26,197 nucleotides of DNA, from positions 1 through 26,197 of IMG/VR virus record IMGVR_UViG_3300025296_002718; one strand, 5' to 3'. Source of the DNA: a virus. Taxonomy: Duplodnaviria > Caudoviricetes. Positions 1-20,764 of this stretch are shown here, in pieces (position 1 is the first letter of the stretch; every line of letters begins with the position of its first letter). Under the pieces are notes generated by a model that ran no database searches, was not told the DNA's origin, and was given only the letters and a program-made list of their open reading frames with translations. Position numbers and translations under genes: made by a program.

Positions 1-96
1 ACATTTGACGACTCATTCCGGTCATGGTGGGAAACTATTTTGGTGGACGAAGAGGGAGTATCTGGAGGAGACTTGCATTAACGTGCTCACTCTCAG

Positions 97-291
97 ATGG
101 GTAGAGTACCCGGAGATGCCATGCTAGAGAAGGTCTGTATTGACTTGCACCCAACAGGCATTAAGGATGAACACCAATACCATTGGTGGCATAGCTTCAG
201 GCCCAACCACCTACCTATATACAAGATTCTATTAAGCGATGGAACCTTTTGGGGATGGCGTAGTGGCTGGAGCTTATGGGGGTGGCGTTAG
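97..291 (+). CDS. Hypothetical small Trp-rich protein
   Basis: ORF on the coding strand abutting the next gene; alternative start at ATG 121 after GGAG; no recognisable motif. Confidence 0.35.
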   Translation: MGRVPGDAMLEKVCIDLHPTGIKDEHQYHWWHSFRPNHLPIYKILLSDGTFWGWRSGWSLWGWR

Positions 292-293
292 AC

Positions 294-1064
294 ATGCTAG
301 AAGCACGTAATAATAAGCCTCTGGGCCGCAAGAGCTATGGGTCTATTGGACACCTCCCTGGAAGTCGGCTCGGCCCAGGGGATCACCATGTGTCCCCAGG
401 GCAAGCGACCATCTGCACACAGAAAACCCGTGACTGCCACGATATCATCGTAGTACAGGAGAAACTTGACGGGTCGTGTACCGCAGTGACCCTCATCGAT
501 GGGGAGATAATCGCCCTCAACCGCTCAGGCTATCGGGCTACCACCTCACCCTATGAGCAGCACCACCTATTCGCTGACTGGGTACATTGGCGTGAGTCCG
601 AGTTTAGAATGATCCTGACGGAGGGCGAGCGTATCGTCGGTGAATGGCTGGCCCAGGCTCATGGTACACGCTATAACAATCTCACCGACCCTTGGGTGGC
701 TTTCGATATTTTCACCAAAGATAATGAACGGCTCGCCTATGATGCGATGGAGGCCCGCATCTGGGCTACCAAATTACATGTGCCTCGGCTATTACACTAT
801 GGTGATGCACTGCATTTTAATGGAGCCGTGTCTATAGAAAAAGTCTGGGCTAGGCTCACCGAACTGGGGAGTTCAGAGGGGAATATAGACCCGCCAGAGG
901 GCGCTGTGTGGCGTGTGGAGCGAGGTGGAAAGATAGACTTCCTCGCTAAGTGGGTGAGACCCGATAAGATAGACGGTCTGTACTTGCCAGAAATCAGTGG
1001 GAAACCCGCAGTCTGGAATTGGCGACTGAGAGCAACACGGAGAGATAAGCACTTATGTGGATGA
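294..1064 (+). CDS. ATP-dependent RNA ligase family protein (nucleotidyltransferase domain only)
   Basis: Ligase motifs in order: I QEKLDGS, III VGEW, IIIa VAFDIF, IV EGAVWR, V FLAKWV; no OB domain as in DNA ligases. Start could be 276. Confidence 0.85.
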   Translation: MLEARNNKPLGRKSYGSIGHLPGSRLGPGDHHVSPGQATICTQKTRDCHDIIVVQEKLDGSCTAVTLIDGEIIALNRSGYRATTSPYEQHHLFADWVHWRESEFRMILTEGERIVGEWLAQAHGTRYNNLTDPWVAFDIFTKDNERLAYDAMEARIWATKLHVPRLLHYGDALHFNGAVSIEKVWARLTELGSSEGNIDPPEGAVWRVERGGKIDFLAKWVRPDKIDGLYLPEISGKPAVWNWRLRATRRDKHLCG

Positions 1065-1563: not shown

Positions 1564-2202
1564 ATGGAGATACGCAACAGGGTCAAGGAGTTAAGGATGG
1601 TCAGTGCTTCTGACCTCATCCCTAACAGCAAGAACTGGCGGCGGCACCCTCGTGGTCAGCAGGATGCCCTACGGGGGATGATCTCGGAGATAGGTTTCGC
1701 TGATGCTCTGATCGCTAGAGACACGCCAGACGGCCTTCAGCTAATAGATGGGCATCTTCGCCAGGAGATTGTTGCTGCCAATCCTGGTGCGTCTGATGAG
1801 ATTCCGGTGCTTGTTCTTGATGTTACCGAAGAAGAAGCGGATAAGCTTCTGGCTACACTGGACCCACTAGCTGCGATGGCCGAAGCTGACAAGGATGCAC
1901 TGCAATCGCTACTTCAAGGCATCGAGACTGATAATGGGGTGGTGGAGCAGCTGCTATTAGATATCGCACAACGCACTGAAATCTTGATTGATAGTATTGA
2001 ATATCCAGAATTGCCAATGGGTGATAAACAACCATTCAAACAAATGACATTTACTTTACATGATGAACAACATGACATTGTTGAACGAGCATTAGCATTG
2101 TCTAAAGCTATGGCCCCATTTATGAATACTGGGAATGAAAACAGCAATGGAAATGCTTTAGCTCGGATTTGTGAAATGTTTGATGGCAAATATGGCGGTT
2201 AG
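1564..2202 (+). CDS. ParB/Srx-like N-terminal domain protein
   Basis: LIPNSKNWRRHP..Q..AL...I.EIGF...LIAR....QLIDGHLR, typical of phage ParB-like domains next to DNA-modification and terminase genes. Confidence 0.8.
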   Translation: MEIRNRVKELRMVSASDLIPNSKNWRRHPRGQQDALRGMISEIGFADALIARDTPDGLQLIDGHLRQEIVAANPGASDEIPVLVLDVTEEEADKLLATLDPLAAMAEADKDALQSLLQGIETDNGVVEQLLLDIAQRTEILIDSIEYPELPMGDKQPFKQMTFTLHDEQHDIVERALALSKAMAPFMNTGNENSNGNALARICEMFDGKYGG

Positions 2203-2986
2203 TGCTAAGGATATACGAGTGGCTCCTATTGCCCCAAAGATAGCGCATTACTTTGTGCAACGCTATCATTATAGTGGGAAAACTGTGAATAACAGTCAAC
2301 TCCATTTCGGCATATGGTTGGGAACGGTATTAATAGGGGTGATGCAGTTTGGCCCTTCTTTAGACAAAAGTAAACTAATTGGATTGGTTAGTGGTACTCG
2401 GTGGAATGAATTCCTTGAATTGAATCGAATGGCATGTGTAGATGATACACCTAAGAATACAGAATCACGGGCATTGGCTATAGCTATGCGGCTTATGCGC
2501 CAACATTATCCTTATGTCCAATGGATTATTTCATTTGCAGATGCTACGCAATGTGGTGATGGAACTATATATAGGGCATCTGGTTTTGTGCTAACGGGGA
2601 TTAAACGTAATACACAGGTCTGGTCATTGCCGGACCAGTCAGTATTCTTGCGGCTGGTGGCTACTGACACAAGGAGGCCTGCAAGACAGCGCCTATTGTC
2701 ACGAATAAGTGTGACAAAAGGCGAGCATATTCGTGATACAGGAGCAGCTTCCATGCGTCCTTTCATTGATGCTGGGGCAAAGCTATTATCAGGCTATCAA
2801 TTGCGTTATATTTACTTTCTTGATCCATCTGCCAGAGATCGTCTCACGGTGCCAATGATACCATTTTCCTATATTAAAGAATGTGGTGCATCTATGTATA
2901 AGGGTAAGCGTGTGAAGGACTCCAGCGAACCGCTGGCTAACCATGCCAGAGAGGGCGGGGCAGCACCGACCCACACGCTCCACTGA
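2192..2986 (+). CDS. mom: Mom-family adenine modification enzyme (GNAT fold)
   Basis: RYHYSGK, LIGVMQFG, FLELNRM, PKNTESRAL, WIISFADATQCGDGTIYRASGF motifs. ATG 2192 overlaps the end of the ParB-like gene; track start is 2171. Confidence 0.85.
   Translation: MAVSAKDIRVAPIAPKIAHYFVQRYHYSGKTVNNSQLHFGIWLGTVLIGVMQFGPSLDKSKLIGLVSGTRWNEFLELNRMACVDDTPKNTESRALAIAMRLMRQHYPYVQWIISFADATQCGDGTIYRASGFVLTGIKRNTQVWSLPDQSVFLRLVATDTRRPARQRLLSRISVTKGEHIRDTGAASMRPFIDAGAKLLSGYQLRYIYFLDPSARDRLTVPMIPFSYIKECGASMYKGKRVKDSSEPLANHAREGGAAPTHTLH
2908..2982 (+). ncRNA. tRNA-Gly-like element embedded in the 3' end of mom
   Basis: 75 nt. Acceptor GCGTGTG/CACACGC (7 bp) + T + CCA; anticodon arm CTGGC-TAACCAT-GCCAG (anticodon ACC); 4 nt variable loop; T arm GGCGG-GGCAGCA-CCG(A)CC; weak D arm. 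Confidence 0.75.
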
Positions 2987-3026
2987 TTACATGGTGAATT
3001 GAAAATCATATTATGGTGATTTGATT

Positions 3027-3464
3027 ATGGCTCTCACCCCAGAAAGACAGATGTATGTGCAACAGCGACGGGCTACCGTTGCTCAATTGTTCATGGCCCG
3101 TGTTTCTCAGCGTGAAATTGCCAAGCAGCTAGACGAGTCTGATGCGGTGATCTCCAATGATGTGAAGATATTGCAAGCAGCCTGGCAGAGAGCCATGATT
3201 GATGATCCTGTCAAAGAAAGGCTTCGGGAGCTCGCCGAGATAGACGACATGGAACGGTATGCCGCCTTGCAGTTAGTCCAGACCAGAGACGGTATCTGGT
3301 GGGACCGACGCCTCAGGGCCAAAGAGCGTCGGGCCAGGATGCTGGGGCTTGACGCTCCTTTCAAGATAGACAAGACTGAGAAAATTCATATTACGGTGGA
3401 AGAAATAAGACGTGACATCTCTGATAGAGTCGATAGCATCGCTGCCCGCCTCGGAACGAACTGA
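3027..3464 (+). CDS. terS: Terminase small subunit (HTH)
   Basis: N-terminal HTH (VSQREIAKQL..S...IS.DVK), RRARMLGLDAP motif, overlaps the start of TerL. Confidence 0.8.
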   Translation: MALTPERQMYVQQRRATVAQLFMARVSQREIAKQLDESDAVISNDVKILQAAWQRAMIDDPVKERLRELAEIDDMERYAALQLVQTRDGIWWDRRLRAKERRARMLGLDAPFKIDKTEKIHITVEEIRRDISDRVDSIAARLGTN

Positions 3465-4713
3465 GCTAATCAGTTCGCTTTCGGAGGACCAACTGAAGGT
3501 CCTGTCCAATGACTGGCGGTCATGGGCAAGGCCGGAGCAGATGGCGCCCGATGGGCAGTGGCAGACGTGGTTGATACGGGCAGGTCGGGGCTTTGGCAAG
3601 ACCAGGTCAGGTGCTGAATGGGTGAAAGAGCGAGTGGAAAGTGGGCTTGCAACTCGGATAGCTCTTGTTGGGCAGACTCCCGCTGATGTACGGGACATCA
3701 TGATCCAGGGAGAGTCGGGCTTTTTGAATATTTACCCCGATGGGCAAGCTCCCAAATATGAGCCATCAAAGCGACGGCTGACCTGGCCCAATGGTGCCTT
3801 TGCTCTGGCCTTCTCCTCATGGCGACCTGACCTACTCCGAGGTCCCCAGTTTGACACGGCCTGGTGTGACGAGGTGGGGAGCTGGAAATACTCTACGGAA
3901 ACATGGGATAACTTGCAGCTGTCTCTCCGTCTAGGCCCAGACCCCCGGTGTGTTGTCACGACAACCCCACGACCAATTGAAGTCCTCAGGAAGCTGATCG
4001 CTGACCCCCATTGCGTACAGACTACAGGCTCTACCTATGCTAACCGTGGTAACCTCCCGCCAGCATTTTTTGAGCGGATTGTTGCCACGTATGCAGGTAC
4101 GCAACGAGGACGCCAAGAAATTGAAGGGGAATTGTTGGATGAGGTTGAAGGGGCCCTTTGGAAACGGGCCTGGATAGAGGCAACTCGCTCACAGGGAGAG
4201 TTGCCTGATTTGGTTCGGGTAGCGGTGGGGGTTGACCCTGCGGGTACTGCGAAGGACACCTCTGACGAGACTGGCATTGTGGTGGCTGGCATTGATGCGA
4301 TGCAGCACATCTGGATTCTGGCCGATGGGTCGGGTCGCTATAGCCCTGATGGATGGGCTACGAGGGCCATAGAGTTAAATGACCGTTTTGAGGCCAATAA
4401 TATTGTTGGTGAGTCAAACTTCGGTGGCGACATGGTCGGGCACACGATTCGGACCACAGCGACAAAACTGAAGCGCAGCATCGCGTTCAAGGGTGTCCAT
4501 GCTTCTCGGGGCAAGCGCATCAGGGCGGAGCCTGTTGCCGCTTTATACGAGCAGGGACTGGTACATCACTGGGGCTCATTCCCTGCGTTAGAGGACCAGC
4601 TATGTAATTGGGATGCCTATGCAGGGGAGAAATCCCCTGACCGGTTAGATGCTATGGTCTGGGCCGTGACCGCGATTATGGGCCGGACCGGAGGCATCGG
4701 GTTGTACACGTGA
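3412..4713 (+). CDS. terL: Terminase large subunit
   Basis: Walker A AGRGFGKT, LRGPQFDTAWCDE Walker B, VTTTP motif III, nuclease VGVDPA and SPDRLDAMVWA. Confidence 0.96.
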   Translation: MTSLIESIASLPASERTELISSLSEDQLKVLSNDWRSWARPEQMAPDGQWQTWLIRAGRGFGKTRSGAEWVKERVESGLATRIALVGQTPADVRDIMIQGESGFLNIYPDGQAPKYEPSKRRLTWPNGAFALAFSSWRPDLLRGPQFDTAWCDEVGSWKYSTETWDNLQLSLRLGPDPRCVVTTTPRPIEVLRKLIADPHCVQTTGSTYANRGNLPPAFFERIVATYAGTQRGRQEIEGELLDEVEGALWKRAWIEATRSQGELPDLVRVAVGVDPAGTAKDTSDETGIVVAGIDAMQHIWILADGSGRYSPDGWATRAIELNDRFEANNIVGESNFGGDMVGHTIRTTATKLKRSIAFKGVHASRGKRIRAEPVAALYEQGLVHHWGSFPALEDQLCNWDAYAGEKSPDRLDAMVWAVTAIMGRTGGIGLYT

Positions 4714-4879: not shown

Positions 4880-5833
4880 ATGATTAACCAACGAGAAAAG
4901 CTAACAGCCCGCTCCACTGGCCTGGGCTCTCAAACTGTAGGGCCATTCCCCATCGACACAGTTCAATTGAAAGACTGTGTTGAAGGGATGCGACAGATTC
5001 CAGATAGCTCTGTTGATCTAGTTATAGCGGACCCGCCCTATAACGCTAGCAAAGGAAGTGTGTGGAAGTGGGACAACTCGGTCAAATTGCCTGGATTCGG
5101 GGGCGATTGGTCAAAAATAATGGCTGATTGGGACGACATGCCATTGGCTGACTATTTGACTTTTACTATAGCCTGGCTATCAGAGGTCAAACGCATCGTA
5201 CGTCCAACAGGTTCGATTTGGGTGCACGGCACCTTTCATAACATCGGTATCATCAACTTCGTGATGCAGTTACTTCAAATCGAGATTATCAACGAGGTTG
5301 TTTGGTATAAGAGGAACAGCTTCCCGAATTTGTCAGGAAGGCGTCTTACCGCTAGCCACGAAACGATGCTATGGGCGCACACTGGTGGGAAGAAGAGGCA
5401 CTACTTCTTCAACTACGAAGTAGCCAAGGCTTCAGGTATTAACGGGGATGCCCTGAAAAAGCCAGGGAAGCAACTGCGCACAGTGTGGGATATTCCCAAC
5501 AACAAAGAACGCCGTGAGCTTGCCCACGGCAAACATCCCGCTCAGAAGCCCCTGCGCCTGTTGAAACGGATGCTGGAAATCTCAGCGATGCCTGGCGACA
5601 TCGTGGTTATTCCGTTTGCTGGGTCGGGGTCAGAGTGCGTGGCTGCCAAGGACCTAGGCATCCATTTCCTCGGTTTCGAGAACGACCCAACTTACCTGGA
5701 CATCTGTCGGCATCGGCTTGAAGATAGCTGCCCAAGCGTAGTTGGTCTTCCATCGTTCAACCCCGCTCCGGTGAACAACGGCGCTCAATTGATGCTGCTA
5801 TCGCAGCAGACTCGCGGGTGGCGGAATAGGTAG
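4880..5833 (+). CDS. Orphan beta-class N6A/N4C DNA methyltransferase
   Basis: Catalytic ADPPYN N-terminal, HPAQKP, SAM-binding PFAGSGS C-terminal (beta order); no cognate REase nearby. Confidence 0.93.
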   Translation: MINQREKLTARSTGLGSQTVGPFPIDTVQLKDCVEGMRQIPDSSVDLVIADPPYNASKGSVWKWDNSVKLPGFGGDWSKIMADWDDMPLADYLTFTIAWLSEVKRIVRPTGSIWVHGTFHNIGIINFVMQLLQIEIINEVVWYKRNSFPNLSGRRLTASHETMLWAHTGGKKRHYFFNYEVAKASGINGDALKKPGKQLRTVWDIPNNKERRELAHGKHPAQKPLRLLKRMLEISAMPGDIVVIPFAGSGSECVAAKDLGIHFLGFENDPTYLDICRHRLEDSCPSVVGLPSFNPAPVNNGAQLMLLSQQTRGWRNR

Positions 5834-6414: not shown

Positions 6415-8547
6415 ATGCGGACAATCAATCTTGGGTTCGGGAAGCTCATTATAGGAAGAGAGCCTCAGGGTAAGGCTGCCCTGGCTGACATTCAGGGCAG
6501 CAGGGTCTTTTCTGGGCAGGATGGTGTTGGTCAGGAGTGGGCGAACCCGAAGTACGGTGAATACTATGCCACATCCGTGCCAGCGTACCGGGCGGTGAAG
6601 CTACGGGCTGATGCTGTCGCCTCAGCGCCTCTCAAGGTATATCGTCGGCGTGGTGGAGATGATCCTGAGCCTGTGCCGTCTAACCATCCTATCCAGGAGT
6701 TGCTTGACCGCGTGAATCCCTGGTGGACAGCTGCAGACCTCTGGAAGGCCACCGAGTCGTACCTATCGCTCTGGGGGTCTGCGTATTGGTTTATCGACTC
6801 GTCCGAGAGCAATCGCACCATCTGGCCCTTGCGCCCTGACCGGATGCGGATTATTCCTGATAAGAGTGCCAAGGACACCAATATGTACATCAAGGGATAT
6901 CTCCATGTTGGGGATAGCGGGCGCACAACCTCCCTCTTGCCCGAAGAGGTGGTGTGGTTTAGGTACTTCAACCCAATACATGAGTATGCAGGGTTGGCAC
7001 CAATGGCACCGGCGCGTTTATCCCTGGACCTGGGACGTAATGCCCTCAAGTTCGATAGTGCGTTCTTTGCCAATGGAGCGTTACCCCAGGACCTCATATT
7101 TCAGGTAGACGGGCCGGTGACCGAGGACGAGGTGGAAGCCTTCTATCAGCGCTTGGAGAAGCGGCATAAGGGTGTTTCAAATGCACATAGACCCATGCTG
7201 TGGGACCTGAGCCAAGGGGCCAAGCCACAGACATTAGGGCTGAATCACCGGGACATGGAGTTCATGGCTGCCCTCAATTTCACTGTAGAGGATGCTGCGC
7301 GGATATGGGGGGTGCCCCCACCCAAGATGTATTCCCAGACCCAGAGCATATATAACAATGTGCGACAGGCAGATATCGAATTCTACACGGACACCATATC
7401 ATCGGAATGGAAATTTCTCCAGTCTGAGGTTTCAGAGCTATTGATTCCCGCGCTATCCCGTAGCGATGAAGACCTGTATGTAGCTTTCGATACGTCTGAC
7501 ATACTTCCGTTGCAGGAGGCGATGGCGGAGCAGCAGGAAAGCCAGCGCAAGGACATAACTACGGGCATTATGACGATCAATGAGGTTCGGCGGAAGCGCA
7601 ATCTCCCTCCTGTCTCATGGGGTGACACATGGTGGCCGCCAATCAGCCTTACTCCAGCTGAGGGTGGTGGTGCCGTAGCCCCGAACGAGGAGTCCGGGAA
7701 CAGGGTCTTTGCCCTAAATGGTTATCACCTCTACCAGGCCAAGCAGTGGACCGATGATGTGCTGAACGCCGAGGGTGTCGCATTCACCAAGCGTCTCAGG
7801 GCGTCGGAAGATAGATTTGTGGATATGCAGAAGGCTCTATTTGATAGGCAGCGCAGATCTGTACTGCAGAAGCTAGACACCATTACCTTGAGTGCAGAAG
7901 CGGTGCTAAAACAGGGAGCTGGTGACATATTCAACCCGGATGAGTGGGTTGATGTATTTCAGCGCAATGGGCGTCCAGTTATGGCAGCGTCGCTAACCCT
8001 GGCTGCGGAACAACATGGGTCCACCTTTGGCATAGGACCTTTTGACCCATCACTGCCTGAAGTACAGCGTTGGGTTGATGACCGGGTGGTGTTCTGGACT
8101 CAGCAAGTCAACGAGTCCACTGCTCAACTCCTGCAGACTGAGATAGCGGCTGCGCTAGATGCCGGTGATGGTATCCCGCAGGTGAGAGACAGAGTTAACA
8201 AAATATTCCGGTTCAATAACACCTTTGGGGCGGAGCGGATAGCACGTACAGAAGTCCTTGCAGCGTCCAATCAAGGGCATCTCGCACTGTACCGGCAGTC
8301 TGGTGAGGTACAGGAGAAGATGTGGCTTGCTACGACGGATGACCGTACCCGGGTGGCACACATTGAGGCCCACCGGCAGACCGTCCCGCTGGAGTCCAAG
8401 TTCCTGGTGGGGGGGGAGCAGTTGGATGCACCAGGTATCGGGGGGAGTGCTGGTCAGGTAATTAACTGCCGATGCACGACAGCTCCAGTGATACGCAGGA
8501 GGGCAGCAATGCCAGAGGGGAGTGTAAATGGTTCAACAGAACGGTAG
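6415..8547 (+). CDS. HK97-family portal fused to MuF (SPP1 gp7-like) head morphogenesis domain
   Basis: Portal: LWGSAYW, IWPLRPDRM, FFANGALP, ARIWGVPP, GIMTINEVR. MuF: AERIARTE, KMWLATTDDRTR.AH, INCRC. Confidence 0.93.
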   Translation: MRTINLGFGKLIIGREPQGKAALADIQGSRVFSGQDGVGQEWANPKYGEYYATSVPAYRAVKLRADAVASAPLKVYRRRGGDDPEPVPSNHPIQELLDRVNPWWTAADLWKATESYLSLWGSAYWFIDSSESNRTIWPLRPDRMRIIPDKSAKDTNMYIKGYLHVGDSGRTTSLLPEEVVWFRYFNPIHEYAGLAPMAPARLSLDLGRNALKFDSAFFANGALPQDLIFQVDGPVTEDEVEAFYQRLEKRHKGVSNAHRPMLWDLSQGAKPQTLGLNHRDMEFMAALNFTVEDAARIWGVPPPKMYSQTQSIYNNVRQADIEFYTDTISSEWKFLQSEVSELLIPALSRSDEDLYVAFDTSDILPLQEAMAEQQESQRKDITTGIMTINEVRRKRNLPPVSWGDTWWPPISLTPAEGGGAVAPNEESGNRVFALNGYHLYQAKQWTDDVLNAEGVAFTKRLRASEDRFVDMQKALFDRQRRSVLQKLDTITLSAEAVLKQGAGDIFNPDEWVDVFQRNGRPVMAASLTLAAEQHGSTFGIGPFDPSLPEVQRWVDDRVVFWTQQVNESTAQLLQTEIAAALDAGDGIPQVRDRVNKIFRFNNTFGAERIARTEVLAASNQGHLALYRQSGEVQEKMWLATTDDRTRVAHIEAHRQTVPLESKFLVGGEQLDAPGIGGSAGQVINCRCTTAPVIRRRAAMPEGSVNGSTER

Positions 8548-11400: not shown

Positions 11401-12417
11401 TTGGTTGCTCCAGAGCGGCCTCCTAGACCGATTAATAAACCATTAATTAAAGACAATGGATTCGATTTTATCGAATCCTACCGGCGCATGTATCTGATCC
11501 GGCGAACCGAAGAGGAGATTATTGCACGATATCCCAACCAGCAGATGCGGTGTCCGGTACATCTGTCTATAGGCCAGGAAGCCCCTGCGGTGGCCGTAGC
11601 AATGGCCTTGCGTCCTGGAGACCATGCGTACTCTACCCACCGGTGCCACGCCCACTACCTGGCGATGGGTGGCGACCTGAAAAAAATGGTAGCGGAGCTC
11701 TATGGCAAGGTGACTGGGTGCGCCAAAGGCATGGGTGGGTCCATGCATCTGGTAGACGAGTCTGTGGGGTTCATGGGTACATCGGCAATCGTGGGGTCAT
11801 CGGTGTCTCTGGCGGTTGGGTCAGCGTTGGCTTTCCAGCTAAGAGGTACTGACCAATGCGCGGTGGCGTTCATGGGGGACTCGGTGCCTGAGACAGGGCA
11901 GTTCTGGGAAGCTGTGTCCTTTGCGGGGCTGCATCAATTGCCGATTCTCTTCGTTCTGGAGAACAACCAGTATGCCACGGCGACGCATATTAACAAGAGG
12001 CAACCTTACCACAATAGTGGCACTTCCATGGAAGAAAGAGTTCGTCCATTTAATGTGAGGGCATATTATCCAAGACAAGAGACTGTGCAGGATACCATCA
12101 AAAGTATGCAGTGGGTACGGGACAGACTGCCTGCTTTTTTGGAATTGGATACTTACCGTTACCGGGCTCACGTCGGCATGGAGTACGACTGGGACCAAGG
12201 GTATCGCAGCGAGGCGGAGGTGAAGCGAGCGATGGCTGGTGATCAATTGGATCGGTTGCGAGAGCAAATGGATACAGAAGCTACCTTATTGATTGAGTCC
12301 GAAATCACTAAGCGAGTTATAGAAGCCTTCGATGCGGCGGAGGCGGCGCCATATCCCACCGAAGCGGACATGCAAGCCTATGGGCACTGGGAGGCGGTGC
12401 AGTGGAGCAATCGGTAG
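11401..12417 (+). CDS. ThDP-dependent dehydrogenase E1 alpha-like subunit
   Basis: HLSIGQEA, STHRCHAHYLA.GG, G.GGSMHL, ThDP motif GDS...ENNQY, TYRY..H. Confidence 0.93.
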   Translation: MVAPERPPRPINKPLIKDNGFDFIESYRRMYLIRRTEEEIIARYPNQQMRCPVHLSIGQEAPAVAVAMALRPGDHAYSTHRCHAHYLAMGGDLKKMVAELYGKVTGCAKGMGGSMHLVDESVGFMGTSAIVGSSVSLAVGSALAFQLRGTDQCAVAFMGDSVPETGQFWEAVSFAGLHQLPILFVLENNQYATATHINKRQPYHNSGTSMEERVRPFNVRAYYPRQETVQDTIKSMQWVRDRLPAFLELDTYRYRAHVGMEYDWDQGYRSEAEVKRAMAGDQLDRLREQMDTEATLLIESEITKRVIEAFDAAEAAPYPTEADMQAYGHWEAVQWSNR

Positions 12418-12427
12418 TGGAGGGTCT

Positions 12428-13453
12428 GTGAAAATCACCTACCGTAATGGCCTAAGTAACGCTTTAACAGACTCTATGGAAGAGGCTGAGAATGTCCTTT
12501 GCCTTGGCGTGGGCGTTACCGAACCCACGGGCATATTTGGGACTACCCAGGACGCCTATCGGCGGTTCCCCCAACGTGTTATCGAATGCCCGCTGTCCGA
12601 GAATATGCTGACAGGCGCTTGTGTAGGTCTGGCGCTGGAAGGCTACAAGCCAGTTCTGGTACATGCCCGAATGGACTTCTTAATGCTTACAATGGAACAC
12701 CTAGTGAACACGGCAGCCAAATGGGGCTTTATGAACGGGCGTTACCCGAACATCACCGTTCGGGCTATTGTAGGACGTGGTTGGGGCCAGGGGCCTACCC
12801 ATAGCCAGAACCCGGCTGCACTCTTTGCCCACATTCCAGGGCTTCGGGTCTACATGCCGTACCGTCCCAGTGATGCCTATTTCGCCCTGAGACACGCGAT
12901 AGCGACTGAGGGTCCAGTGATAGTGGTGGAGCCCCGGCGATTGTATAACGATGAAGGGACGATGCCTGATCCGCACGACAATTATTACTGGGGACTGGGC
13001 AATATTTGGCATCCAGCAGGTGTGCATCCCGATGTGACCATTGTAGCTACCTCCGACACTTTGCAGGATGCACACGATTCGATAAGGGCGTTAAGGGCTG
13101 GCGGTATTTCTGCGATGGTGGTTGATCCGCAGATGTTCCCTTTGCCTGGTAACTTGATTGAGGATGCAGTAACGTCTACTGGCCGTTTGGTAGTAGTAGA
13201 CAACGGTTGGGCAACGGCTGGGCTCTCATCTGAGATTATCGCACGGGTGTGTGAGCGGGTTGACCTCGAGGTCAGGCCCGTGCGAGTTACGCCCCCATTC
13301 ATGCCGACTCCAGCATCGCACCCGCTTGAGGACACGTGGTATCCATCGGTAGATGCCATCGTGAGAGCCTGTGCCCAGGTGTTGGGCAGGGATGACCTGG
13401 TGACTCCTGTTGAGCCGTCAATCCCAGCGCCAGCGTTCAAGGGGCCATTTTGA
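12428..13453 (+). CDS. ThDP-dependent dehydrogenase E1 beta / transketolase C-terminal-like subunit
   Basis: RVIECPLSEN...G...GLAL.G.KP, GWGQGPTHSQ, HIPGLRV..P, TGRLVVVD; GTG start at 12428. Confidence 0.93.
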   Translation: MKITYRNGLSNALTDSMEEAENVLCLGVGVTEPTGIFGTTQDAYRRFPQRVIECPLSENMLTGACVGLALEGYKPVLVHARMDFLMLTMEHLVNTAAKWGFMNGRYPNITVRAIVGRGWGQGPTHSQNPAALFAHIPGLRVYMPYRPSDAYFALRHAIATEGPVIVVEPRRLYNDEGTMPDPHDNYYWGLGNIWHPAGVHPDVTIVATSDTLQDAHDSIRALRAGGISAMVVDPQMFPLPGNLIEDAVTSTGRLVVVDNGWATAGLSSEIIARVCERVDLEVRPVRVTPPFMPTPASHPLEDTWYPSVDAIVRACAQVLGRDDLVTPVEPSIPAPAFKGPF

Positions 13454-13698
13454 TGCATGAATCGTGTAAGTCATCCAAGGATGTGGATAAAAGGATGGAT
13501 GTTACGATCAAAGGCCCTATGGGTTTTTCTGGTACTTACTTCATGCCTGAAGGTGGTTACATTAATACAGGAGGCAAAGTCATCGAAGACTGCGGGGAAC
13601 ATTTGAAGGTACAGCTAGATGTCTCAGTCAATGGTGTCTATCTCATCATCATGGTTCCCAAGAATAATATCGCAAGAGTGCATAAGGAGCTGGTTTAG
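13450..13698 (+). CDS. Hypothetical beta-rich protein
   Basis: Overlap-coupled ORF on the coding strand. Confidence 0.55.
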   Translation: MMHESCKSSKDVDKRMDVTIKGPMGFSGTYFMPEGGYINTGGKVIEDCGEHLKVQLDVSVNGVYLIIMVPKNNIARVHKELV

Positions 13699-13946
13699 TG
13701 GACACCGCCATCTCCGATTCGGAGATTGTATCCCTCATATTCCCCAGCTTGGAGCTGGTGAGTATTCGGGGAACCCATGTTACAGTCTCGCTTCCAAGGG
13801 CTATGCCTACTCCAGAGCGGGGTACACTCATGCTAGAAGCGGAGAAGATGTTGCGCCAACAAGTGGACCCACGCATAGAGGTATTCCTGGAGCCCAAGGG
13901 GGATATGAACAAGCTGAGGTTGAAGCTTCGAGGGGTGAAGGTGTAA
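13698..13946 (+). CDS. Hypothetical protein
   Basis: AAGGAG RBS, GTG start overlapping the previous stop; ERGTLMLEAE...EP.GD.NKLR. From memory it resembles small partners of this radical SAM family (unverified). Confidence 0.65.
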   Translation: MDTAISDSEIVSLIFPSLELVSIRGTHVTVSLPRAMPTPERGTLMLEAEKMLRQQVDPRIEVFLEPKGDMNKLRLKLRGVKV

Positions 13947-14509
13947 TGGCAGAAACCAAGGTGACCGAGCTTAAATACTATGGTGTGCGGGTACGTGCTA
14001 TATCTGCACTCAGAAGGTCAGGATTTGAAACCATCGAAAGTGTAGTTACTCGTTATGATTCATTGATGATTGATGTCTATGGACTAGGTCCGATGATGTT
14101 GTCAGAGATACATGACGGGATTGAAGCTTGGGCAGCAGGCCAAGATAGATTTGAATTTGATCGTTATTATGCACCAAAGATTTTGTGGAAAGATGTGCCT
14201 GTCGAACGTCGTATTACTAAGTCCCATATCGAAGGTCGAGCCAAAAGTGATGTGGTCTACTACGACCAAGCTTGGTTAGACAGGCGCATCCGTTCGCTTA
14301 CCACGCCTGAGTGTCACGCTGCCGTTCATTGGTACTATAACACTCCTACTCCTCTGGCCCCATGTAGCCATCCCCCAACGCCAGGAGAATTCTTTTGCGT
14401 TGTGCATGGCGGGAAAAAGAAGGATAGTGTAACGATGAGGGATAGAGTGCTTTCCCCTGTTGTTATGCGTCGGATTGCATGTCAGGTTGATCCAGTTTTA
14501 GTACCGTGA
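13946..14509 (+). CDS. RNA polymerase alpha-CTD-like (HhH) domain plus C-terminal C3H Zn finger
   Basis: GVRVRAISALRRSGFETIESV......L..VYGLGPMMLSEI matches the alpha-CTD consensus; C-terminal C...C...FCVVHGG. TAATG coupling gives start 13946. Confidence 0.65.
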   Translation: MAETKVTELKYYGVRVRAISALRRSGFETIESVVTRYDSLMIDVYGLGPMMLSEIHDGIEAWAAGQDRFEFDRYYAPKILWKDVPVERRITKSHIEGRAKSDVVYYDQAWLDRRIRSLTTPECHAAVHWYYNTPTPLAPCSHPPTPGEFFCVVHGGKKKDSVTMRDRVLSPVVMRRIACQVDPVLVP

Positions 14510-14523
14510 CTTTGGGAGTCTCC

Positions 14524-15669
14524 ATGAAAGTGCATATTCCTCATAGCCAATTAAGCGCCGCAGATGACCACACCCAGATGATTCTGGATGGGCACAAGCT
14601 GCCCTGGCACCATGACCGGGTCGAAGCATGGGAGCGCGGGGAGCGTATAGCGCCCATCACCATAGACATGGCTCTGACCAGGGCCTGTAACTATAGCTGT
14701 GGATTTTGCTACGCCATGCTCCAGGAGAATGACCGCTCAGTTATCACGAAGGACATTATAACTTCTTTCTTGGACGACTGCGCGGAGATGGGAGTGCGGG
14801 GCATCTCACTGGTCTCAGACGGTGAGTCAACCTTGTCCCCGGCTTTTGACCACAGCCTGATGTATGGTCACGAGTTGGGCATCTCGATGGCAGTAGGGTC
14901 CAATGGCTATGTGCTGAAAGCTGACAGGATGAGACCGTTGCTGAAGACCCTCACCTACATCCGTATCAACTTCAGTGCGGGGGAGCCCAAGCGGTACGCT
15001 GAGATCATGGGAGTGAAAGAGGAGGCGTACTGGCAGGTCATTCAGAATATCCGTGACATGGTAGCTATCAAGGACGCTCAAGGGCTGGATACTACCATCG
15101 GTATCCAGATGGTCTTGATGCCCCAGGATGCAGACCAGATTATTCCCTTCGCCAAGCTAGGGAAGGAATTGGGAGTGGATTATGCGGTTATTAAACATTG
15201 CTCGGACGATGAGTATGGCAGTCTGGGCGTGGATTATGGGGCCTATGGGAGCCTCTACAGTCTGCTGCGGGAGGCAGAATCATATTCCACTGATAATTAC
15301 CAATGCGTGGTTAAGTGGAGCAAAATCGCATCTGAAGGCCAGCGATCATATCAGCGATGCTACGGACCGCCATTCCTGATTCAAATCAGTGGGTCCGGTC
15401 TGGTAGCTCCTTGCGGGATGATGTTTAACGACCGCTACGCCAAGTTCCACATCGGCAACATCTGCGAGCAGCGATGGTGGGATATCTGGCAATCAGACCG
15501 GTACTGGGATGTGATGAGTTACCTGGGGTCTGACCAGTTCAATGCCCAGAAGAGCTGCGGGACGCTGTGCCTGCAGCACAAGGTCAACGAGGCCCTTGAC
15601 CAGCATACGAAGGGCCAGAAGGTCACATCAGCGCAGGCAGGAGAGCCACTGCATGTCAACTTCGTTTAA
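14524..15669 (+). CDS. Radical SAM enzyme with SPASM/twitch domain
   Basis: CNYSCGFC; C-terminal RCYGP...I...G.V.PC......IGNI......DIW.S...C...C; GGAG RBS before ATG 14524. Confidence 0.92.
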   Translation: MKVHIPHSQLSAADDHTQMILDGHKLPWHHDRVEAWERGERIAPITIDMALTRACNYSCGFCYAMLQENDRSVITKDIITSFLDDCAEMGVRGISLVSDGESTLSPAFDHSLMYGHELGISMAVGSNGYVLKADRMRPLLKTLTYIRINFSAGEPKRYAEIMGVKEEAYWQVIQNIRDMVAIKDAQGLDTTIGIQMVLMPQDADQIIPFAKLGKELGVDYAVIKHCSDDEYGSLGVDYGAYGSLYSLLREAESYSTDNYQCVVKWSKIASEGQRSYQRCYGPPFLIQISGSGLVAPCGMMFNDRYAKFHIGNICEQRWWDIWQSDRYWDVMSYLGSDQFNAQKSCGTLCLQHKVNEALDQHTKGQKVTSAQAGEPLHVNFV

Positions 15670-16000
15670 GTTCATTGATTTCTGGAATGTGCTCGGCGGC
15701 CTCTTACTAATTGTTGGTGTTGGTCTTGTTGGCACCTTCATGGTGCTGGGTATGCTGTTGATAATCCAAACAATTGGGGGTGACAAGAATGACAGCTACG
15801 AGTGCATCCCACTGACTATCCATGTGGACTCTGTCTTTGATGATGGACGTGTAGGCATCGGCGAGCGGGAGATATGCGGTCAGAATCTCACCATCAGCAA
15901 CGAGTATGGCCCCAGTTTCACGGATGTGATCGAGATTCAAAAAGGCGAGATAGCAAGACTCAAAGCGATCATCGCGGCGGCAGGTGGGAATAAGCCATGA
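15653..16000 (+). CDS. Single-TM membrane protein
   Basis: AGGAG upstream; N-terminal hydrophobic helix; ATGA coupling to the next gene. Confidence 0.6.
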   Translation: MSTSFKFIDFWNVLGGLLLIVGVGLVGTFMVLGMLLIIQTIGGDKNDSYECIPLTIHVDSVFDDGRVGIGEREICGQNLTISNEYGPSFTDVIEIQKGEIARLKAIIAAAGGNKP

Positions 16001-16392
16001 GCATCCCTAAGAGGCATGTGCATATATTAGCATCCACAAACTGCTTGACCATTAATGATCAAGTGGTTGTTATGAAAGGTGAGCGTCAAGGGCAAGTCGG
16101 CACTGTCTCGCTCATTTGTCAAGATATGGGTGTTGTGAGAACTATTTTCTGCATGGTTCAGTTTGAAGATTCATTAGAACAGATGTATGCTAGTGAATTG
16201 GATATCGCTGCTGATGAGCGAGTACAGACAATTAGAAAAGATAAAGCCTTTTGGGATGATGTCCATGCAAGGAGTAGCGCATTCTTCGCTACGCCTGAAG
16301 GTGCAGAGTTTAGAAAACAGCGTCGTGCACGCCATGAAGAGATGCGAATAAGGCGTGATCCTGCATATATGGAATACCATCCTGATGGTTAA
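15997..16392 (+). CDS. Hypothetical protein with KOW/SH3-like motif
   Basis: INDQVVVMKGERQGQVGTV matches the KOW pattern. Confidence 0.55.
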   Translation: MSIPKRHVHILASTNCLTINDQVVVMKGERQGQVGTVSLICQDMGVVRTIFCMVQFEDSLEQMYASELDIAADERVQTIRKDKAFWDDVHARSSAFFATPEGAEFRKQRRARHEEMRIRRDPAYMEYHPDG

Positions 16393-16408
16393 CCCCGCTA
16401 GGAGTGAG

Positions 16409-17833
16409 ATGAACACCAACCCTTCTGAGGCTGAGAGAATCAGTATGTTAGAGACATTGTCTCCTGACTTTGCAGCGGTCAAGGCTCAAGAAATGCTGGC
16501 TATTCGTGAACAATATCACGATAAAATCATCGTACTGTGCGACGGGGTTTTCGACGTATTACACCCCGGACACATTGCGCATCTGAGGGAAGCACGTAGT
16601 CATGGGGATATCTTAGTTGTCGCCCTGGCAACGGATGATTGGGTGCGCAAAGGCCCTGATAGACCCATGTTCGGATACAAAATGCGGGAATCCGCTCTTA
16701 ATGAACTTGTTAATCTTGTGGACTATATTTTCCCTTGTGACGCTCATATTAACAACGTGATTCCATATCTCAAACCCAACATTTATGCCAAGGGGCACGA
16801 TTATGACCAAATTGAGCCTGACTTGGTTGAGTTGATCATTCAGCATGGGGGTACTCCGATTATTACGCAGGCCCCCATCGGTAGCTCCTCAAGCTACATC
16901 AACAGCCAAATGAGTGTCTATCCAGAAAAGACTCAAGATTATCTCAAAGGGTTCAAGTCAGATTATTCTGTCTCCGAAGTGGTGGGTTGGTTAGACGCAT
17001 TGCAGGACATGTCCATCGTGGTGGTTGGTGAGTGGATCGAGGACATTTATACCAGGGCCACACCCCTTGCCAAGTCACCGAGGGACCCAACGGTGACATA
17101 CCAGCGCCATGAGTCAGAGACCCACCAGGGCGGAATAATGGCAGTAGTTAACCATCTGAAGGGGTTCTGTGACAATGTGGTCTCCATCAGTCAAATGCAA
17201 GTGATTACCAAAGAGCGATTCTGGGACCCTGGTAGGAACCTGAAGTTTGTCGGGATGGAGACTATTCCCACCCCTCTCATGGATGAGCAGGAGATACATG
17301 ATACCTACTTTGCTCTAAAAGTGGCAGCTATGAACTCCCAGGTGCTCATGGCAATGGACTATGGTCATGGCTTCTTCGTGCCAAAACTGCGCGAACTAGC
17401 TCAGTCACAGGCCAGTTTCCTGGCTGTGAACTGTCAGACCAACTCCCATAACTACGGGTTCAACCCGCCCACTTTGTGGGCTAGGGCTGACTACATCTGC
17501 ATGAATGCACTAGAGGATCGATTGGCTGATTCCTATGGCTATGAAGAGAACTGGTGGGGGGTTAGAATGGTCACAGATGGAAGTGATGGCTCTAGCCTAT
17601 ATTCTCCCATTGCAATATATACGCCAGCTCTCGCGGTGTCAGTAGTAGACACAGTAGGCGCTGGAGACAGCCTCTTTGCAATCTCGGCTCCCCTTGTGGC
17701 AGCTGGCTGCCCTTCACCTATAGTTGGCTTCATCGGCAATGCGATGGCAGCACTCCAGTGCAACGTGGTGGGGAATAGCCAGCCAGTGGGCAAGAAGTCT
17801 CTGCAGCGATTTATCAAGGCGTTGATGGCGTAA
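16409..17833 (+). CDS. Bifunctional nucleotidyltransferase (HxGH) + PfkB sugar kinase, HldE/RfaE-like with reversed domain order
   Basis: GVFDVLHPGHI..L..A...GD.LVV, KG.DRP, KP.IYAKG.DY; C-terminal DYGHG and VVDTVGAGDS; AGGAG RBS before 16409. Confidence 0.9.
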   Translation: MNTNPSEAERISMLETLSPDFAAVKAQEMLAIREQYHDKIIVLCDGVFDVLHPGHIAHLREARSHGDILVVALATDDWVRKGPDRPMFGYKMRESALNELVNLVDYIFPCDAHINNVIPYLKPNIYAKGHDYDQIEPDLVELIIQHGGTPIITQAPIGSSSSYINSQMSVYPEKTQDYLKGFKSDYSVSEVVGWLDALQDMSIVVVGEWIEDIYTRATPLAKSPRDPTVTYQRHESETHQGGIMAVVNHLKGFCDNVVSISQMQVITKERFWDPGRNLKFVGMETIPTPLMDEQEIHDTYFALKVAAMNSQVLMAMDYGHGFFVPKLRELAQSQASFLAVNCQTNSHNYGFNPPTLWARADYICMNALEDRLADSYGYEENWWGVRMVTDGSDGSSLYSPIAIYTPALAVSVVDTVGAGDSLFAISAPLVAAGCPSPIVGFIGNAMAALQCNVVGNSQPVGKKSLQRFIKALMA

Positions 17834-18093
17834 TGATACTACTGCTACCCAACTGGGTGCGATGGTGTTTACTCCCGTACATATTTATTGTCGGGGTGGG
17901 ATATGGGTTGGTTATCCAGTTACATTTTACCTTGTGGATTTTGCCCAAAGAATTACTGGTGGGCCATGTCAATCTAAGGGAAGGTGATACTTATCTGGGG
18001 ACACTGCACAATCCATTGAAGTGCCCTGGATGCCCAGCCCCGACAGGAGTGCCAACGTTTAGGTGGGACCTCAACAAAGAAAAAGGAGGATGA
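17833..18093 (+). CDS. Small membrane protein with C-terminal HxPxxCxxC
   Basis: TAATG coupling; LPNWV..LLP, TM segment, HNPLKCPGC. Confidence 0.6.
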   Translation: MILLLPNWVRWCLLPYIFIVGVGYGLVIQLHFTLWILPKELLVGHVNLREGDTYLGTLHNPLKCPGCPAPTGVPTFRWDLNKEKGG

Positions 18094-18097
18094 AAAG

Positions 18098-19084
18098 ATG
18101 ACTGACAGACTTGTACTCATCACAGGTGGTACAGGTTACGTGGGGAGTGTCCTCGTGCCGATGGTAGCCAAGAAATATCCGGTCCGGGTGTTCTGTAACC
18201 AGCTCTTCGGGAATCCCATCGCTGAAACTCCTAACGTCGAGTTCATCGAGGGCGACATACGGGACGAGAATACCTTGGCAGTTGCTATGCGTGGAGTTAC
18301 TGATGTGATCCACTTGGCTGGCGTTGTCACTGACGAGCTTGTAGACATGAACCCAGGCCTGGCACGTGAAATTAATGTCGAGGCGATGAATAGCTTGTGC
18401 CAGATCGCCAAGACAGCCGGTGCAAATAGATTCATATATGCCTCATCCAGCAGCATCTATGGGGCGCAGGACGAGATTGCCGATGAGACGATGTTGCCAA
18501 ACCCGATGACCGAATATGCCAAGATGAAGCTGGCAGGCGAGACAATTCTAAACAATTATCAGAGTCTCGACTTTACGGTCTGCTCAGTCCGTTGCGCCAC
18601 CTGTGCTGGACCTGCTCCCAGGATGCGCCTGGACACAATCGTGAATGTGTTCTGCAAACAGGCCTACTTTGACCACCGTATCAACGTCCACGGCGGAGGC
18701 CAGTGGCGGACCAACATCCATGTTGAGGACGCTGCTGCTTTCTATACGAGGCTCCTTGACGCTGATCCTGAGCTTATCCAGGGTGAAGCATTCAACGTCA
18801 CGGCTGAGAATCACCATGCTATAGAGATCGCCCGGATCGTCAGGTACTTGGCTGGCGAATATGGGTTACCTGCTAGCATCTCTGTGGATACGAGCAAGCA
18901 GGACCCACGTAATTACCGGATGACCGCGAAGAAAGCAGAGCAGGTGTTGGGTTGGCAGCCGAGACATGATATGACTTGTGCCATCAATGACAATTTCCGA
19001 TGGTTCAAGGCTGGTGGCATAGAGGAACCCGATAGCGATCTCTACTACAACAACAGGCGGATGAAAGAATTTGTGAAAGGATAG
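18098..19084 (+). CDS. NAD-dependent nucleotide-sugar epimerase/dehydratase (extended SDR)
   Basis: ITGGTGYVGS, VIHLAG, ASSSSIYG, YAKMK (YxxxK), RMRLD, R.NIHVED. Confidence 0.94.
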   Translation: MTDRLVLITGGTGYVGSVLVPMVAKKYPVRVFCNQLFGNPIAETPNVEFIEGDIRDENTLAVAMRGVTDVIHLAGVVTDELVDMNPGLAREINVEAMNSLCQIAKTAGANRFIYASSSSIYGAQDEIADETMLPNPMTEYAKMKLAGETILNNYQSLDFTVCSVRCATCAGPAPRMRLDTIVNVFCKQAYFDHRINVHGGGQWRTNIHVEDAAAFYTRLLDADPELIQGEAFNVTAENHHAIEIARIVRYLAGEYGLPASISVDTSKQDPRNYRMTAKKAEQVLGWQPRHDMTCAINDNFRWFKAGGIEEPDSDLYYNNRRMKEFVKG

Positions 19085-19089
19085 TATCT

Positions 19090-20226
19090 ATGCAAACGCA
19101 GACTGAAATGAAAGTACCCTACGGATACCTACCCCAAGAGTATGCGGCTAACCGGGGCGACATTGACGAGGTCTTGGAGAAGATACGCCAGTGTGTCGAG
19201 AAAGGCGACTTCACCCTTGGCGATCCGGTAGGTGAGTTTGAGGAGGCCTTTGCACAGGTCACTGGCTACGCCCACGCTGTGGCGGTGAATAGCGGCACTG
19301 ACGCTCTGTTCCTGGCAATGAAGGCTATGGGGGTAGGATATGGCAACTATGTGGTGACAGTGCCCAACACCTTCGTTGCCACAGTTGGGGCCATCTGTGC
19401 GACGAGGGCGACCCCTGTCTTTACTGATGTGGGGGATGATTATTTGATGCGCTTGAATCTGACTACTGAAAAAAAGCGAAAGTTAAACGTTGGGACAAAC
19501 ATTTATGGAATCAGATACCTGCCGGTGGAATTGACAGGTCGCCCTTTGCCTGATGATCTTTTCCCCTGGCTTAATGATCAGACATTTGGACCCATCATTG
19601 TAGATTCAGCCCAATCAATTGGCAGCAAAGCGCCTCAGATTAAGGACATTGCTACCTACAGTCTCCACCCTCTAAAGAATGTCCATGTCTGGGGTGATGG
19701 TGGGGTAGTTTGCACCAATCATCGAGAGATGGCCGATGCAATACGACTGACCAGAAATCATGGGCTAAGAACGCGAGATGAAGCTGCACTTCCTGGGTAC
19801 AATAGTCGCCTGGATAGTGTCCAGGCTATCGTGGGCCTGTACTCGCTGAGGAATGTGGACTGGGTGACCGAACAACGTAACCGCCACGCCAGGGTATATG
19901 ACGAGGCCCTGCGAGGCTGTGAGGGAGTTACCCTTCCTCCGCGTAGTGCGGGTATCACTGAGGCGTTCCACACCTATGTGGTCCAGGTGGATGACCGTGC
20001 GCATTTGATAGACCGTCTCCTGAGTAAGGGGATTGACGCAAAAGTCCACTACCCGATTCCCCTGCATCTACAACCAGCCTTTAGACATCTGGGATACGAG
20101 GCGGGAGATTTGCCCGTTGCTGAGGCTCAGGCCAAACGTATCCTGAGCCTGCCAGTCCACGAGTATCTTGCAGAAGGACAGATAGAGTATGTCGTTGAAA
20201 CAATCCGAGCTTTCTACGCTTCTTGA
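19090..20226 (+). CDS. DegT/DnrJ/EryC1/StrS PLP-dependent sugar aminotransferase
   Basis: VNSGTDAL, TFVAT, VDSAQS, SLHPLKN...WGDGG, GYNSRLD..QA, HYPIPLHLQPA, LSLP. Confidence 0.95.
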   Translation: MQTQTEMKVPYGYLPQEYAANRGDIDEVLEKIRQCVEKGDFTLGDPVGEFEEAFAQVTGYAHAVAVNSGTDALFLAMKAMGVGYGNYVVTVPNTFVATVGAICATRATPVFTDVGDDYLMRLNLTTEKKRKLNVGTNIYGIRYLPVELTGRPLPDDLFPWLNDQTFGPIIVDSAQSIGSKAPQIKDIATYSLHPLKNVHVWGDGGVVCTNHREMADAIRLTRNHGLRTRDEAALPGYNSRLDSVQAIVGLYSLRNVDWVTEQRNRHARVYDEALRGCEGVTLPPRSAGITEAFHTYVVQVDDRAHLIDRLLSKGIDAKVHYPIPLHLQPAFRHLGYEAGDLPVAEAQAKRILSLPVHEYLAEGQIEYVVETIRAFYAS

Positions 20227-20764
20227 CCAATACACCAGTCAGCTAGAGAAGGGGCTAGATGCATTAGGTTACTCTGATATTGGTCTATTTGTGAGTGCGC
20301 TACATGCCTGCCAAGATAGCGGCGGAGTGGTCTATACCTGTGGCAATGGTGGCAGCGCTGCCAACGCTAGCCACCTGGCGGCTCACCTGAACCAAGCTGG
20401 CATCAGGTCCGTATGTCTCACTGACAATGTACCCTGGGTAACTGCAACCAGCAACGATGCAGATTACGGAAGCATTTTCAGTGATTATGTGCAATTAGTG
20501 GGCAATAAGGATAATGACCTGGTGTTCATCATCAGTGGCTCAGGAAACTCTTTCAATGTGGAAAGGCTGATAATTCATGGTTGGTCTGGGTTGGCCCTCC
20601 TGGGAATGGACGGCGGGCGGATCAAAGCGCTAATAGACGGCCATTCTGATGATAGCGTGCGCTATATCTTGGTGCCCGTGCGGGACTATGGCCCTATCGA
20701 GGATATCCATAGCGCCCTTATTCACATGATTTATCAGTCCCTCAAGGCGTTGACAACAGAGTAG
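20189..20764 (+). CDS. SIS-domain phosphosugar isomerase, GmhA-like
   Basis: CGNGGSAANASH, TATSND..Y..IF, ISGSGNS.NV, G.DGG, EDIH...IH. Confidence 0.9.
   Translation: MSLKQSELSTLLDQYTSQLEKGLDALGYSDIGLFVSALHACQDSGGVVYTCGNGGSAANASHLAAHLNQAGIRSVCLTDNVPWVTATSNDADYGSIFSDYVQLVGNKDNDLVFIISGSGNSFNVERLIIHGWSGLALLGMDGGRIKALIDGHSDDSVRYILVPVRDYGPIEDIHSALIHMIYQSLKALTTE

Follow-up and report, generated by a model that had tools for sequence, protein, structure and literature searches.

A tRNA-Gly-Like Element Linked to Phage mom Genes, and Its Probable Role as a Dedicated Glycyl Donor

Can one stretch of phage DNA encode both a DNA-modifying enzyme and the carrier of that enzyme's co-substrate? The question is raised by a 26-kb virus record (26,197 nt, here called the window; coordinates are window positions unless another locus is named), in which the final 25 codons of a mom-family gene overlap a 75-nt element resembling tRNA-Gly. 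The original prediction, made from the letters of this copy, placed a cloverleaf within the codons for the Mom tail and cited reports that Mu Mom uses Gly-tRNA-Gly as its donor. That chemistry is confirmed by passages of Silva et al. (2026; PMC13219725), according to which Mu Mom transfers glycine from Gly-tRNA-Gly, rejects Gly-tRNA-Ala, and accepts all three E. coli tRNA-Gly isoacceptors. Those passages make no mention of a phage-encoded tRNA.

The Element and Its Gene

The element lies at 2908-2982 on the plus strand, as sequence reading and family covariation agree, and the cloverleaf is built as originally described. The acceptor stem (GCGTGTG, 2908-2914, with CACACGC, 2972-2978) is fully paired over 7 bp. 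Discriminator T73 (2979) precedes an encoded CCA (2980-2982) that stands one base ahead of the mom stop codon, TGA (2984-2986). The anticodon stem (2933-2937 with 2945-2949; 5 bp) closes a 7-nt loop, TAACCAT, with A33 at 2939 and the triplet ACC in the anticodon position (2940-2942); its C35 and C36 are GlyRS identity bases. The variable loop is the 4-nt AGAG. The T arm (GGCGG-GGCAGCA-CCG(A)CC, 2954-2971) has the loop GGCAGCA and an extra base in its stem, A2969, between pairs 51-63 and 50-64.

Several features of canonical elongator tRNAs are missing: the window copy has A8, A33, GGC in place of TTC, and the extra T-stem base. This bears out the claim that translation features are lost, whereas a D stem described as collapsed proves deviant but not gone: it is imperfect, with four pairs, one C-A mismatch, and one bulge.

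By itself, the window copy is weak evidence for a tRNA-like fold. Its MFE z score is -1.92, with 4 of 200 shuffles equally good, and the two strands of the window contain five fully paired 7/5/5 cloverleaves, 2908-2982 being the sole one that ends in TCCA. In the best predicted fold (-29.8 kcal/mol) the acceptor stem survives, whereas the anticodon and T arms, with a predicted pairing probability of 3-5%, do not form; the cloverleaf itself comes to -25.4. Such single-sequence folding is not decisive: all three arms are predicted for 39 of 55 family copies, versus 6 of 10 ordinary tRNA-Gly. ARAGORN called no genes in the window, Rfam gave no match over the element, and a promoter and terminator scan of the window (9 sites, 4.3 expected) returned nothing informative for it. 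Against model R1, to whose construction it contributed, the copy scores 78.8 bits. The element stands above chance because it is conserved and covaries in homologous loci, as described below.

The host gene (2192-2986, plus strand; alternative starts at 2171 and 2183) matches Pfam PF25680 (E 9e-50) and PHROG 1384. Its product belongs to the family of Mu Mom (PMC13219725; PDB 8bv8; PF25680) and shares its fold: identity is 34%, and the predicted model matches 8bv8 with E 5.5e-19 (Foldseek). Six active-site residues are kept. Mu H58, Y59, R111, S124, D149, and Y159 correspond to H26, Y27, R79, S92, D117, and Y127 here, invariant in 67 sequences. The essential Mu R151, however, aligns with Q120 (2549-2551), invariant in 67 clade members, although a one-residue gap nearby leaves the register slightly uncertain. 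Mu combines R151 with use of host tRNA-Gly and lacks the element, whereas the window Mom combines Q with a tail spelled by the RNA. The substitution may relate to donor recognition; because of it, the activity and donor specificity of the window Mom are only assumed.

A ParB-like gene (1564-2202, plus strand; PHROG 620/723) lies directly upstream of mom. ParB genes also flank mom in Psychrobacter phage vB_PmaS_Y8A, in the Dehalococcoidales locus L224, and in the Dehalococcoides modules discussed below. Downstream is a probable small terminase subunit gene (3021-3464, plus strand), assigned by position only; it has no Pfam match, and its PHROG 645 match carries the unverified label "Rnase E". 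A small terminase gene holds the equivalent place in phage Y8A. The terminase large subunit gene follows (3412-4713, plus strand; PF03237, PF17289), so that mom and its element sit among genes for DNA packaging.

Other genes of the window deserve brief mention. An RNA-ligase-family gene (PF09414) lies at 276-1064, about 1.1 kb upstream of mom, and an N6/N4 DNA methyltransferase gene (4880-5833), directly after the large terminase gene, is a second DNA-modifying gene of the packaging cluster. A run of carbohydrate and metabolism genes of cellular type (11401-20764) separates the portal gene from those for the prohead protease and capsid; it includes an E1 dehydrogenase/transketolase pair, radical SAM-SPASM, cytidylyltransferase-PfkB, NAD epimerase, DegT aminotransferase, and SIS-domain genes, and is possibly a capsid or DNA glycosylation cassette.

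A Conserved, Covarying Family

Homologous loci were sampled from the protein side: 80 IMG/VR loci picked by protein similarity, plus the window, make 81. Elements were sought with an identity-free parse, which requires paired stems and leaves the choice of bases open (score threshold 15). With a parse score of at least 15, 72 of the 81 loci carry an element after mom (55 distinct copies; 43 representatives at 90% redundancy), so this is not a remnant unique to one genome. The nine loci missed by the parse divide as follows: L052 has a weak copy, L061 and L077 have theirs displaced 0.5-0.65 kb beyond mom by an insert, L072 has a decayed one, and the other five have no element. L072 has two tandem mom genes (1890-3459 of that locus) followed by its decayed, 3'-truncated copy (3619-3690).

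All parsed copies have a 7-bp acceptor stem and a 5-bp T stem. The 43 representatives hold G1-C72 in 43, C2-G71 in 42, G3-C70 in 40, U73 in 43, and TCCA in 37. Every one has CC in the anticodon loop (ACC in 27, TCC in 8, CCC in 1, and seven loops of 6 or 8 bases), and every one has the extra T-stem base, an A in 41. Features of the decoding tRNA are much rarer: U33 occurs in 8 of 36 seven-base loops and TTC in 8 of the 43.

Covariation was assessed on a model built from a 20-copy subset, a MAFFT alignment of the 43 copies having misplaced the anticodon stem. In the 20-copy alignment 95.3% of cells are paired, against 37-43% in slid controls, and changes on both sides are seen at 18 of 21 pairs; none of 500 shuffles matched this. 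The figures are to be read with the structure taken from the same sequences and with shuffles that ignore relatedness. When 96 distinct copies from a pattern scan were aligned to the model, the acceptor stem was 99.4% paired, the anticodon stem 95.5%, and the D stem 66%, values that rest on an alignment fitted to that model. The covariation proposed as a check is therefore found: acceptor stem, CC, and U73-CCA are conserved, and the acceptor and anticodon stems covary. Rfam, run on 20 loci, returned three generic tRNA matches and no dedicated family.

In four marine DNA runs, contigs of other phages match 2906-2982 and stop matching at 2982; related contigs have T at 2940. A midpoint-rooted FastTree phylogeny of Mom (166 sequences over 216 columns; biased to element-bearing loci) interleaves lineages with the element at the 5' end, with it at the 3' end, and without it. 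Deep support is weak and sampling is biased, so no order of events is claimed.

Selection Acts on the Nucleic Acid

The tail of the protein could itself be what is conserved, since 78 of 120 homologous proteins end in G..PT..L. Others have the same DNA in other frames, or a stop ahead of the element. Among the matches listed, 99 distinct copies belong to the 3' class: 67 are in the window's frame, 16 are in other frames, 13 contain the stop, and 3 follow it, so that 32 of the 99 are out of frame or have the stop inside or before the element. Where the frame is shared, synonymous sites are frozen. At the tail G, G, P, T, and L, the commonest codon is used by 18-22 of 23 in-frame representatives, compared with a mean of 43% and a maximum of 65% at 28 conserved fourfold sites of the Mom core. 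The structure model gives Mom tail residues 244-261 a pLDDT below 50.

Nor is position within the gene fixed. In a second class the element lies just after the likely mom start codon. Tandem copies occur (L006, L031, L062, and phage Y8A), and in three loci the element is on the strand opposite to mom (L250, L276, L386). The overlap first noticed in the window is thus common but not obligatory, given copies after the stop, displaced, or on the other strand; tandem, displaced, and opposite-strand copies are compatible with a free RNA. The element at 2908-2982 is real, and it is selected as nucleic acid, not as peptide.

The Element Seen from the RNA Side

Linkage to mom was also approached from the element, with a reverse-search pattern that covers the T arm and the 3' acceptor strand only (the 3' half). 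Estimated matches number 1,400 stretches in IMG/VR, 370 in GTDB, and 2,400 in metagenomes, and 120 loci were listed from each. A match was taken as a true element if a GCG lay upstream and the four bases after it could pair with the 3'-strand positions left free by the pattern.

In viruses, 118 of 122 matches listed have this upstream pairing, and 65 of the 67 well-flanked matches listed have mom on the same strand, 51 with the element at the mom 3' end and 14 at the 5' end. In cell genomes, 53 of 120 listed matches are true elements, and 55 of 120 lack acceptor pairing and are chance matches. The 31 well-flanked true copies listed divide into 21 with same-strand mom, 1 with mom on the opposite strand, and 9 with no mom within 2 kb; mom lies beside 0 of the 55 listed matches that lack acceptor pairing. 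In metagenomes, 104 of 120 listed matches are true elements, and mom is present at 25 of 29 well-flanked ones.

Copies without mom form a minority with mostly unrelated neighbours; one faces a GNAT. Intact orphans in cell genomes, with no mom within 2 kb, include L231, L246, L275, L222, L223, L240, and L261, and the orphan in L246 adjoins RtcB-like fragments. In L284, an Acidobacteriota MAG with no Mom match, the element (2001-2075 of that locus, minus strand) lies about 1 kb before a FemAB-family gene (3-1058, minus strand) in a YdjC/GT2/GT2/FemAB polysaccharide cluster, and is a candidate donor for polysaccharide glycylation; the FemAB link was not found again in 100 relatives searched. In L256 the element (2001-2029 of that locus) stands behind a PF22559 phage GNAT-like gene and a ParB gene (2-724, 1038-2048). 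PF22559 GNATs are a possible second enzyme family linked to the element; the one PF22559 relative found is without it.

Among cultured phages, Psychrobacter phage vB_PmaS_Y8A (OQ059336) has two unannotated copies directly after the mom stop codon, at about 7786-7853 and 7858-7926 of its genome. Genome-wide searches gave no match in Mu, Sonny, Melnitz-3, or phiSHEF2 and only two weak ones in PX29 (20-23 bits); in JD024 and pAEv1818 the 1.5 kb to either side of mom held no element. A blastn search of two elements against cultured phages returned only Y8A itself and ordinary tRNAs.

A Dedicated Glycyl Donor?

What would such an RNA be for? Bacterial glycine identity, in passages of PMC9976931 and PMC7826273, resides in G1-C72, the second pair, U73, C35, and C36. 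The window copy has the complete set, its second pair being C2-G71. The original prediction had added G3-C70, which is present here but not listed among the bacterial determinants in those passages. Compared by sequence, the published glycine identity positions are exactly the family's invariant positions; among the matches listed, CC is in the loop of all 161 distinct copies from viruses and genomes.

The T stem points to a second property. Passages of PMC7826273 and PMC12256121 describe how EF-Tu sequesters ordinary Gly-tRNA from the staphylococcal transferase FmhB, and how dedicated tRNA-Gly evade EF-Tu through pairs 49-65, 50-64, and 51-63. The extra base of the mom-linked family sits between pairs that EF-Tu reads. 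Together with the invariant GlyRS identity and the consumption of Gly-tRNA-Gly by Mu Mom, this leads us to read the element as a tRNA-Gly that serves as a donor only: probably, an RNA released from the mom transcript that evades EF-Tu and is dedicated to giving glycine for adenine-N6 DNA modification. The literature search turned up no paper in which a T-stem bulge was tried for its effect on EF-Tu.

The steps would be as follows. In the late transcript, RNase P would excise the element at 2908, and the 3' end would be trimmed to the encoded CCA. Host GlyRS would glycylate the excised RNA; the T-stem bulge would keep EF-Tu off the charged product; and the window Mom would use it as glycyl donor to adenine-N6 of the phage DNA. 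Because excision would cut the reading frame after MYKG, each transcript would be either mRNA or donor precursor, and the peptide tail would be a by-product. Such a private donor would be dispensable, since Mu Mom takes all host isoacceptors and some mom phages and loci lack the element; the 5 of 81 close mom loci without it count against the donor reading, as do the orphan copies in cell genomes, the Q120 substitution, and the low predicted pairing of the anticodon and T arms in the window copy.

Other Readings of the Same RNA

The element might instead act mainly in cis on the mom mRNA, either by mimicking a tRNA and so binding Mom or GlyRS, or by giving RNase P a place to cut; it would then limit or time the output of a hazardous enzyme. 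This seems unlikely, if far from negligible. The open reading frame runs through the element in 83 of 99 3'-class and 32 of 33 5'-class copies among the matches listed, and the 5'-class element sits just past the likely start codon; Mu, which lacks the element, has a separate translational regulator, Com; and the thrS operator is a precedent for a tRNA mimic in an mRNA. A role in cis fits poorly, however, with copies that are on the opposite strand, displaced by an insert, in tandem, or beyond the stop, or with a position that switches between the two ends of mom. The family also keeps a full acceptor end with U73-CCA, whereas the thrS operator has no acceptor arm. The two roles may coexist, because donor excision would itself destroy the mRNA.

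Improbable, in our estimate, is a decoy that is not a Mom substrate: a glycylated or uncharged RNA that shields the host tRNA-Gly pool needed by Mom (from tRNA nucleases or Gly-tRNA-acetylating toxins) or raises GlyRS through T-boxes. A decoy would need the same identity marks, would explain indirectly the link to a consumer of Gly-tRNA, and would be at home in orphan copies; the non-proteinogenic tRNA-Gly of S. aureus bind the glyS T-box, according to the published passages. But no link to defence genes was seen, and use as a decoy is less direct than use as a donor. The element is present, moreover, in a Psychrobacter phage, and T-boxes would not be expected in that lineage.

An unusual but translating tRNA-Gly that boosts late glycine decoding (of a frameshift type, for copies with eight-base loops) is very improbable. 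Near-canonical copies do exist, ARAGORN detecting 25 of 171 among the matches listed and Rfam's tRNA model 3 of 20 loci. Against this, among the matches listed, U33 is present in 45 of 120 seven-base loops and TTC in 38 of 161 copies, 62 of 161 are shortened, with a D stem that is slight or absent, and 59 of 120 seven-base loops carry ACC. Ten ordinary tRNA-Gly used as controls, drawn from these hosts and from a phage, all keep U8, U33, TTC, and a plain T stem, and the extra base occurs in 0 of 10; the Streptomyces phage tRNA-Gly that was checked has a plain T stem.

The 5' class has its own peculiarity. Among the matches listed, 27 of 33 copies are without a seven-base loop, mainly having eight bases; U8 is kept, and TTC often (examples are L161, L163, L170, L120, and L129). 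Such loops may be another route out of the decoding pool, or may mark a quadruplet-type tRNA.

Least credible of all are a DNA-level remnant left by integration at a tRNA-Gly gene and a pattern produced simply by conservation of the peptide GGxxPTxxL. The frequent G..PT..L ending, and the serine recombinases that adjoin some 5'-class modules (L224; also passages of PMC3146451), are outweighed by an entire cloverleaf with long-range compensatory changes, an extra base that sets the element apart from host tRNA-Gly, Dehalococcoides islands that integrate at ssrA about 4.4 kb away (in the same passages), and the element's indifference to frame, its frozen synonymous sites, and the low model confidence of the tail; covariation and frame tests have already largely refuted these readings.

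Relatives and Precedents

A member of the family has very probably been in print since 2011. Passages of McMurdie et al. (PMC3146451) describe a conserved 76-bp tRNA-Gly-like locus with anticodon DCC that is shared by 16 Dehalococcoides ssrA island modules and a deep-sea fosmid; it lies in the opening 150 bp of a mom homologue and adjoins ParB, and those passages give it no function. The window element is similar in its 75-nt length, its ACC, its place inside mom, and the ParB gene upstream. It differs in lying at the mom 3' end in a phage packaging cluster, rather than at the mom 5' end in a genomic island. The identification rests on L224, a Dehalococcoidales MAG locus that has the gene order of the published module and carries the family element, T-stem extra base included. 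A tRNA-Gly-like locus inside mom was already known in its 5'-end form. The donor link and the 3' form appear to be new: in a search covering few subscription papers, none was found that connects the RNA with the co-substrate of Mom or reports a copy overprinted on the 3' end of the gene.

A functional parallel is with the staphylococcal tRNA-Gly NP1-NP3, which, in passages of PMC7826273 and PMC12256121, keep the GlyRS marks, have altered T-stem pairs where EF-Tu binds, and are proposed to feed GNAT-fold transferases (FmhB/FemX, FemA, FemB). The solutions differ in detail. NP1-NP3 weaken EF-Tu binding with A-U pairs at 49-65, 50-64, and 51-63 (A49-U65, U50-A64, A51-U63) and have a UCC anticodon (passages of PMC7826273), whereas the window element has G49-C65, G50-C64, and C51-G63, the extra base, and ACC. 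NP1-NP3 are described as chromosomal, apart from the enzyme genes, and with a cell-wall role; the mom-linked family overlaps its own enzyme gene, has ACC or TCC, and often no D stem. By analogy, then, the element would work like the staphylococcal non-proteinogenic tRNA-Gly without being a member of that family.

A further likeness is to allo-tRNAs and SelC* tRNA-Cys (passages of Mukai et al. 2017; PMC5389517), non-canonical cloverleaves from metagenomes and phages, some with a bulged T arm and some charged but untranslated. Those RNAs have an 8/4 or 9/3 acceptor branch, a bulge at 51a, and other identities, whereas the mom-linked family is 7/5, bears glycine marks, and places its extra base in the 3' half of the T stem.

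Implications

If the donor reading is correct, numerous phages and islands themselves supply the aminoacyl carrier with which their DNA is hypermodified, which would solve the competition with EF-Tu, and a pseudo-tRNA published in 2011 without a function would be explained. Dedicated non-translating tRNAs would extend from staphylococcal cell walls to the chemistry of DNA. The GGxxPTxxL motif found at either end of many Mom proteins would be the footprint of an RNA. The short copies would be natural minimal GlyRS substrates, of 68-70 nt with little or no D stem, and the extra T-stem base would be a candidate for a new EF-Tu antideterminant. The cultured phage Y8A, with its two copies, offers a testable model.

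More tentatively, and at somewhat less than even likelihood, we suggest that widespread, mostly unannotated, mobile genes for donor-only tRNA-Gly, marked by the extra T-stem base, feed aminoacyl-tRNA-dependent GNATs: Mom above all, occasionally FemAB-like enzymes, and others. Where the element is overprinted, donor excision would destroy the enzyme mRNA, so that one gene would set the ratio of enzyme to co-substrate.
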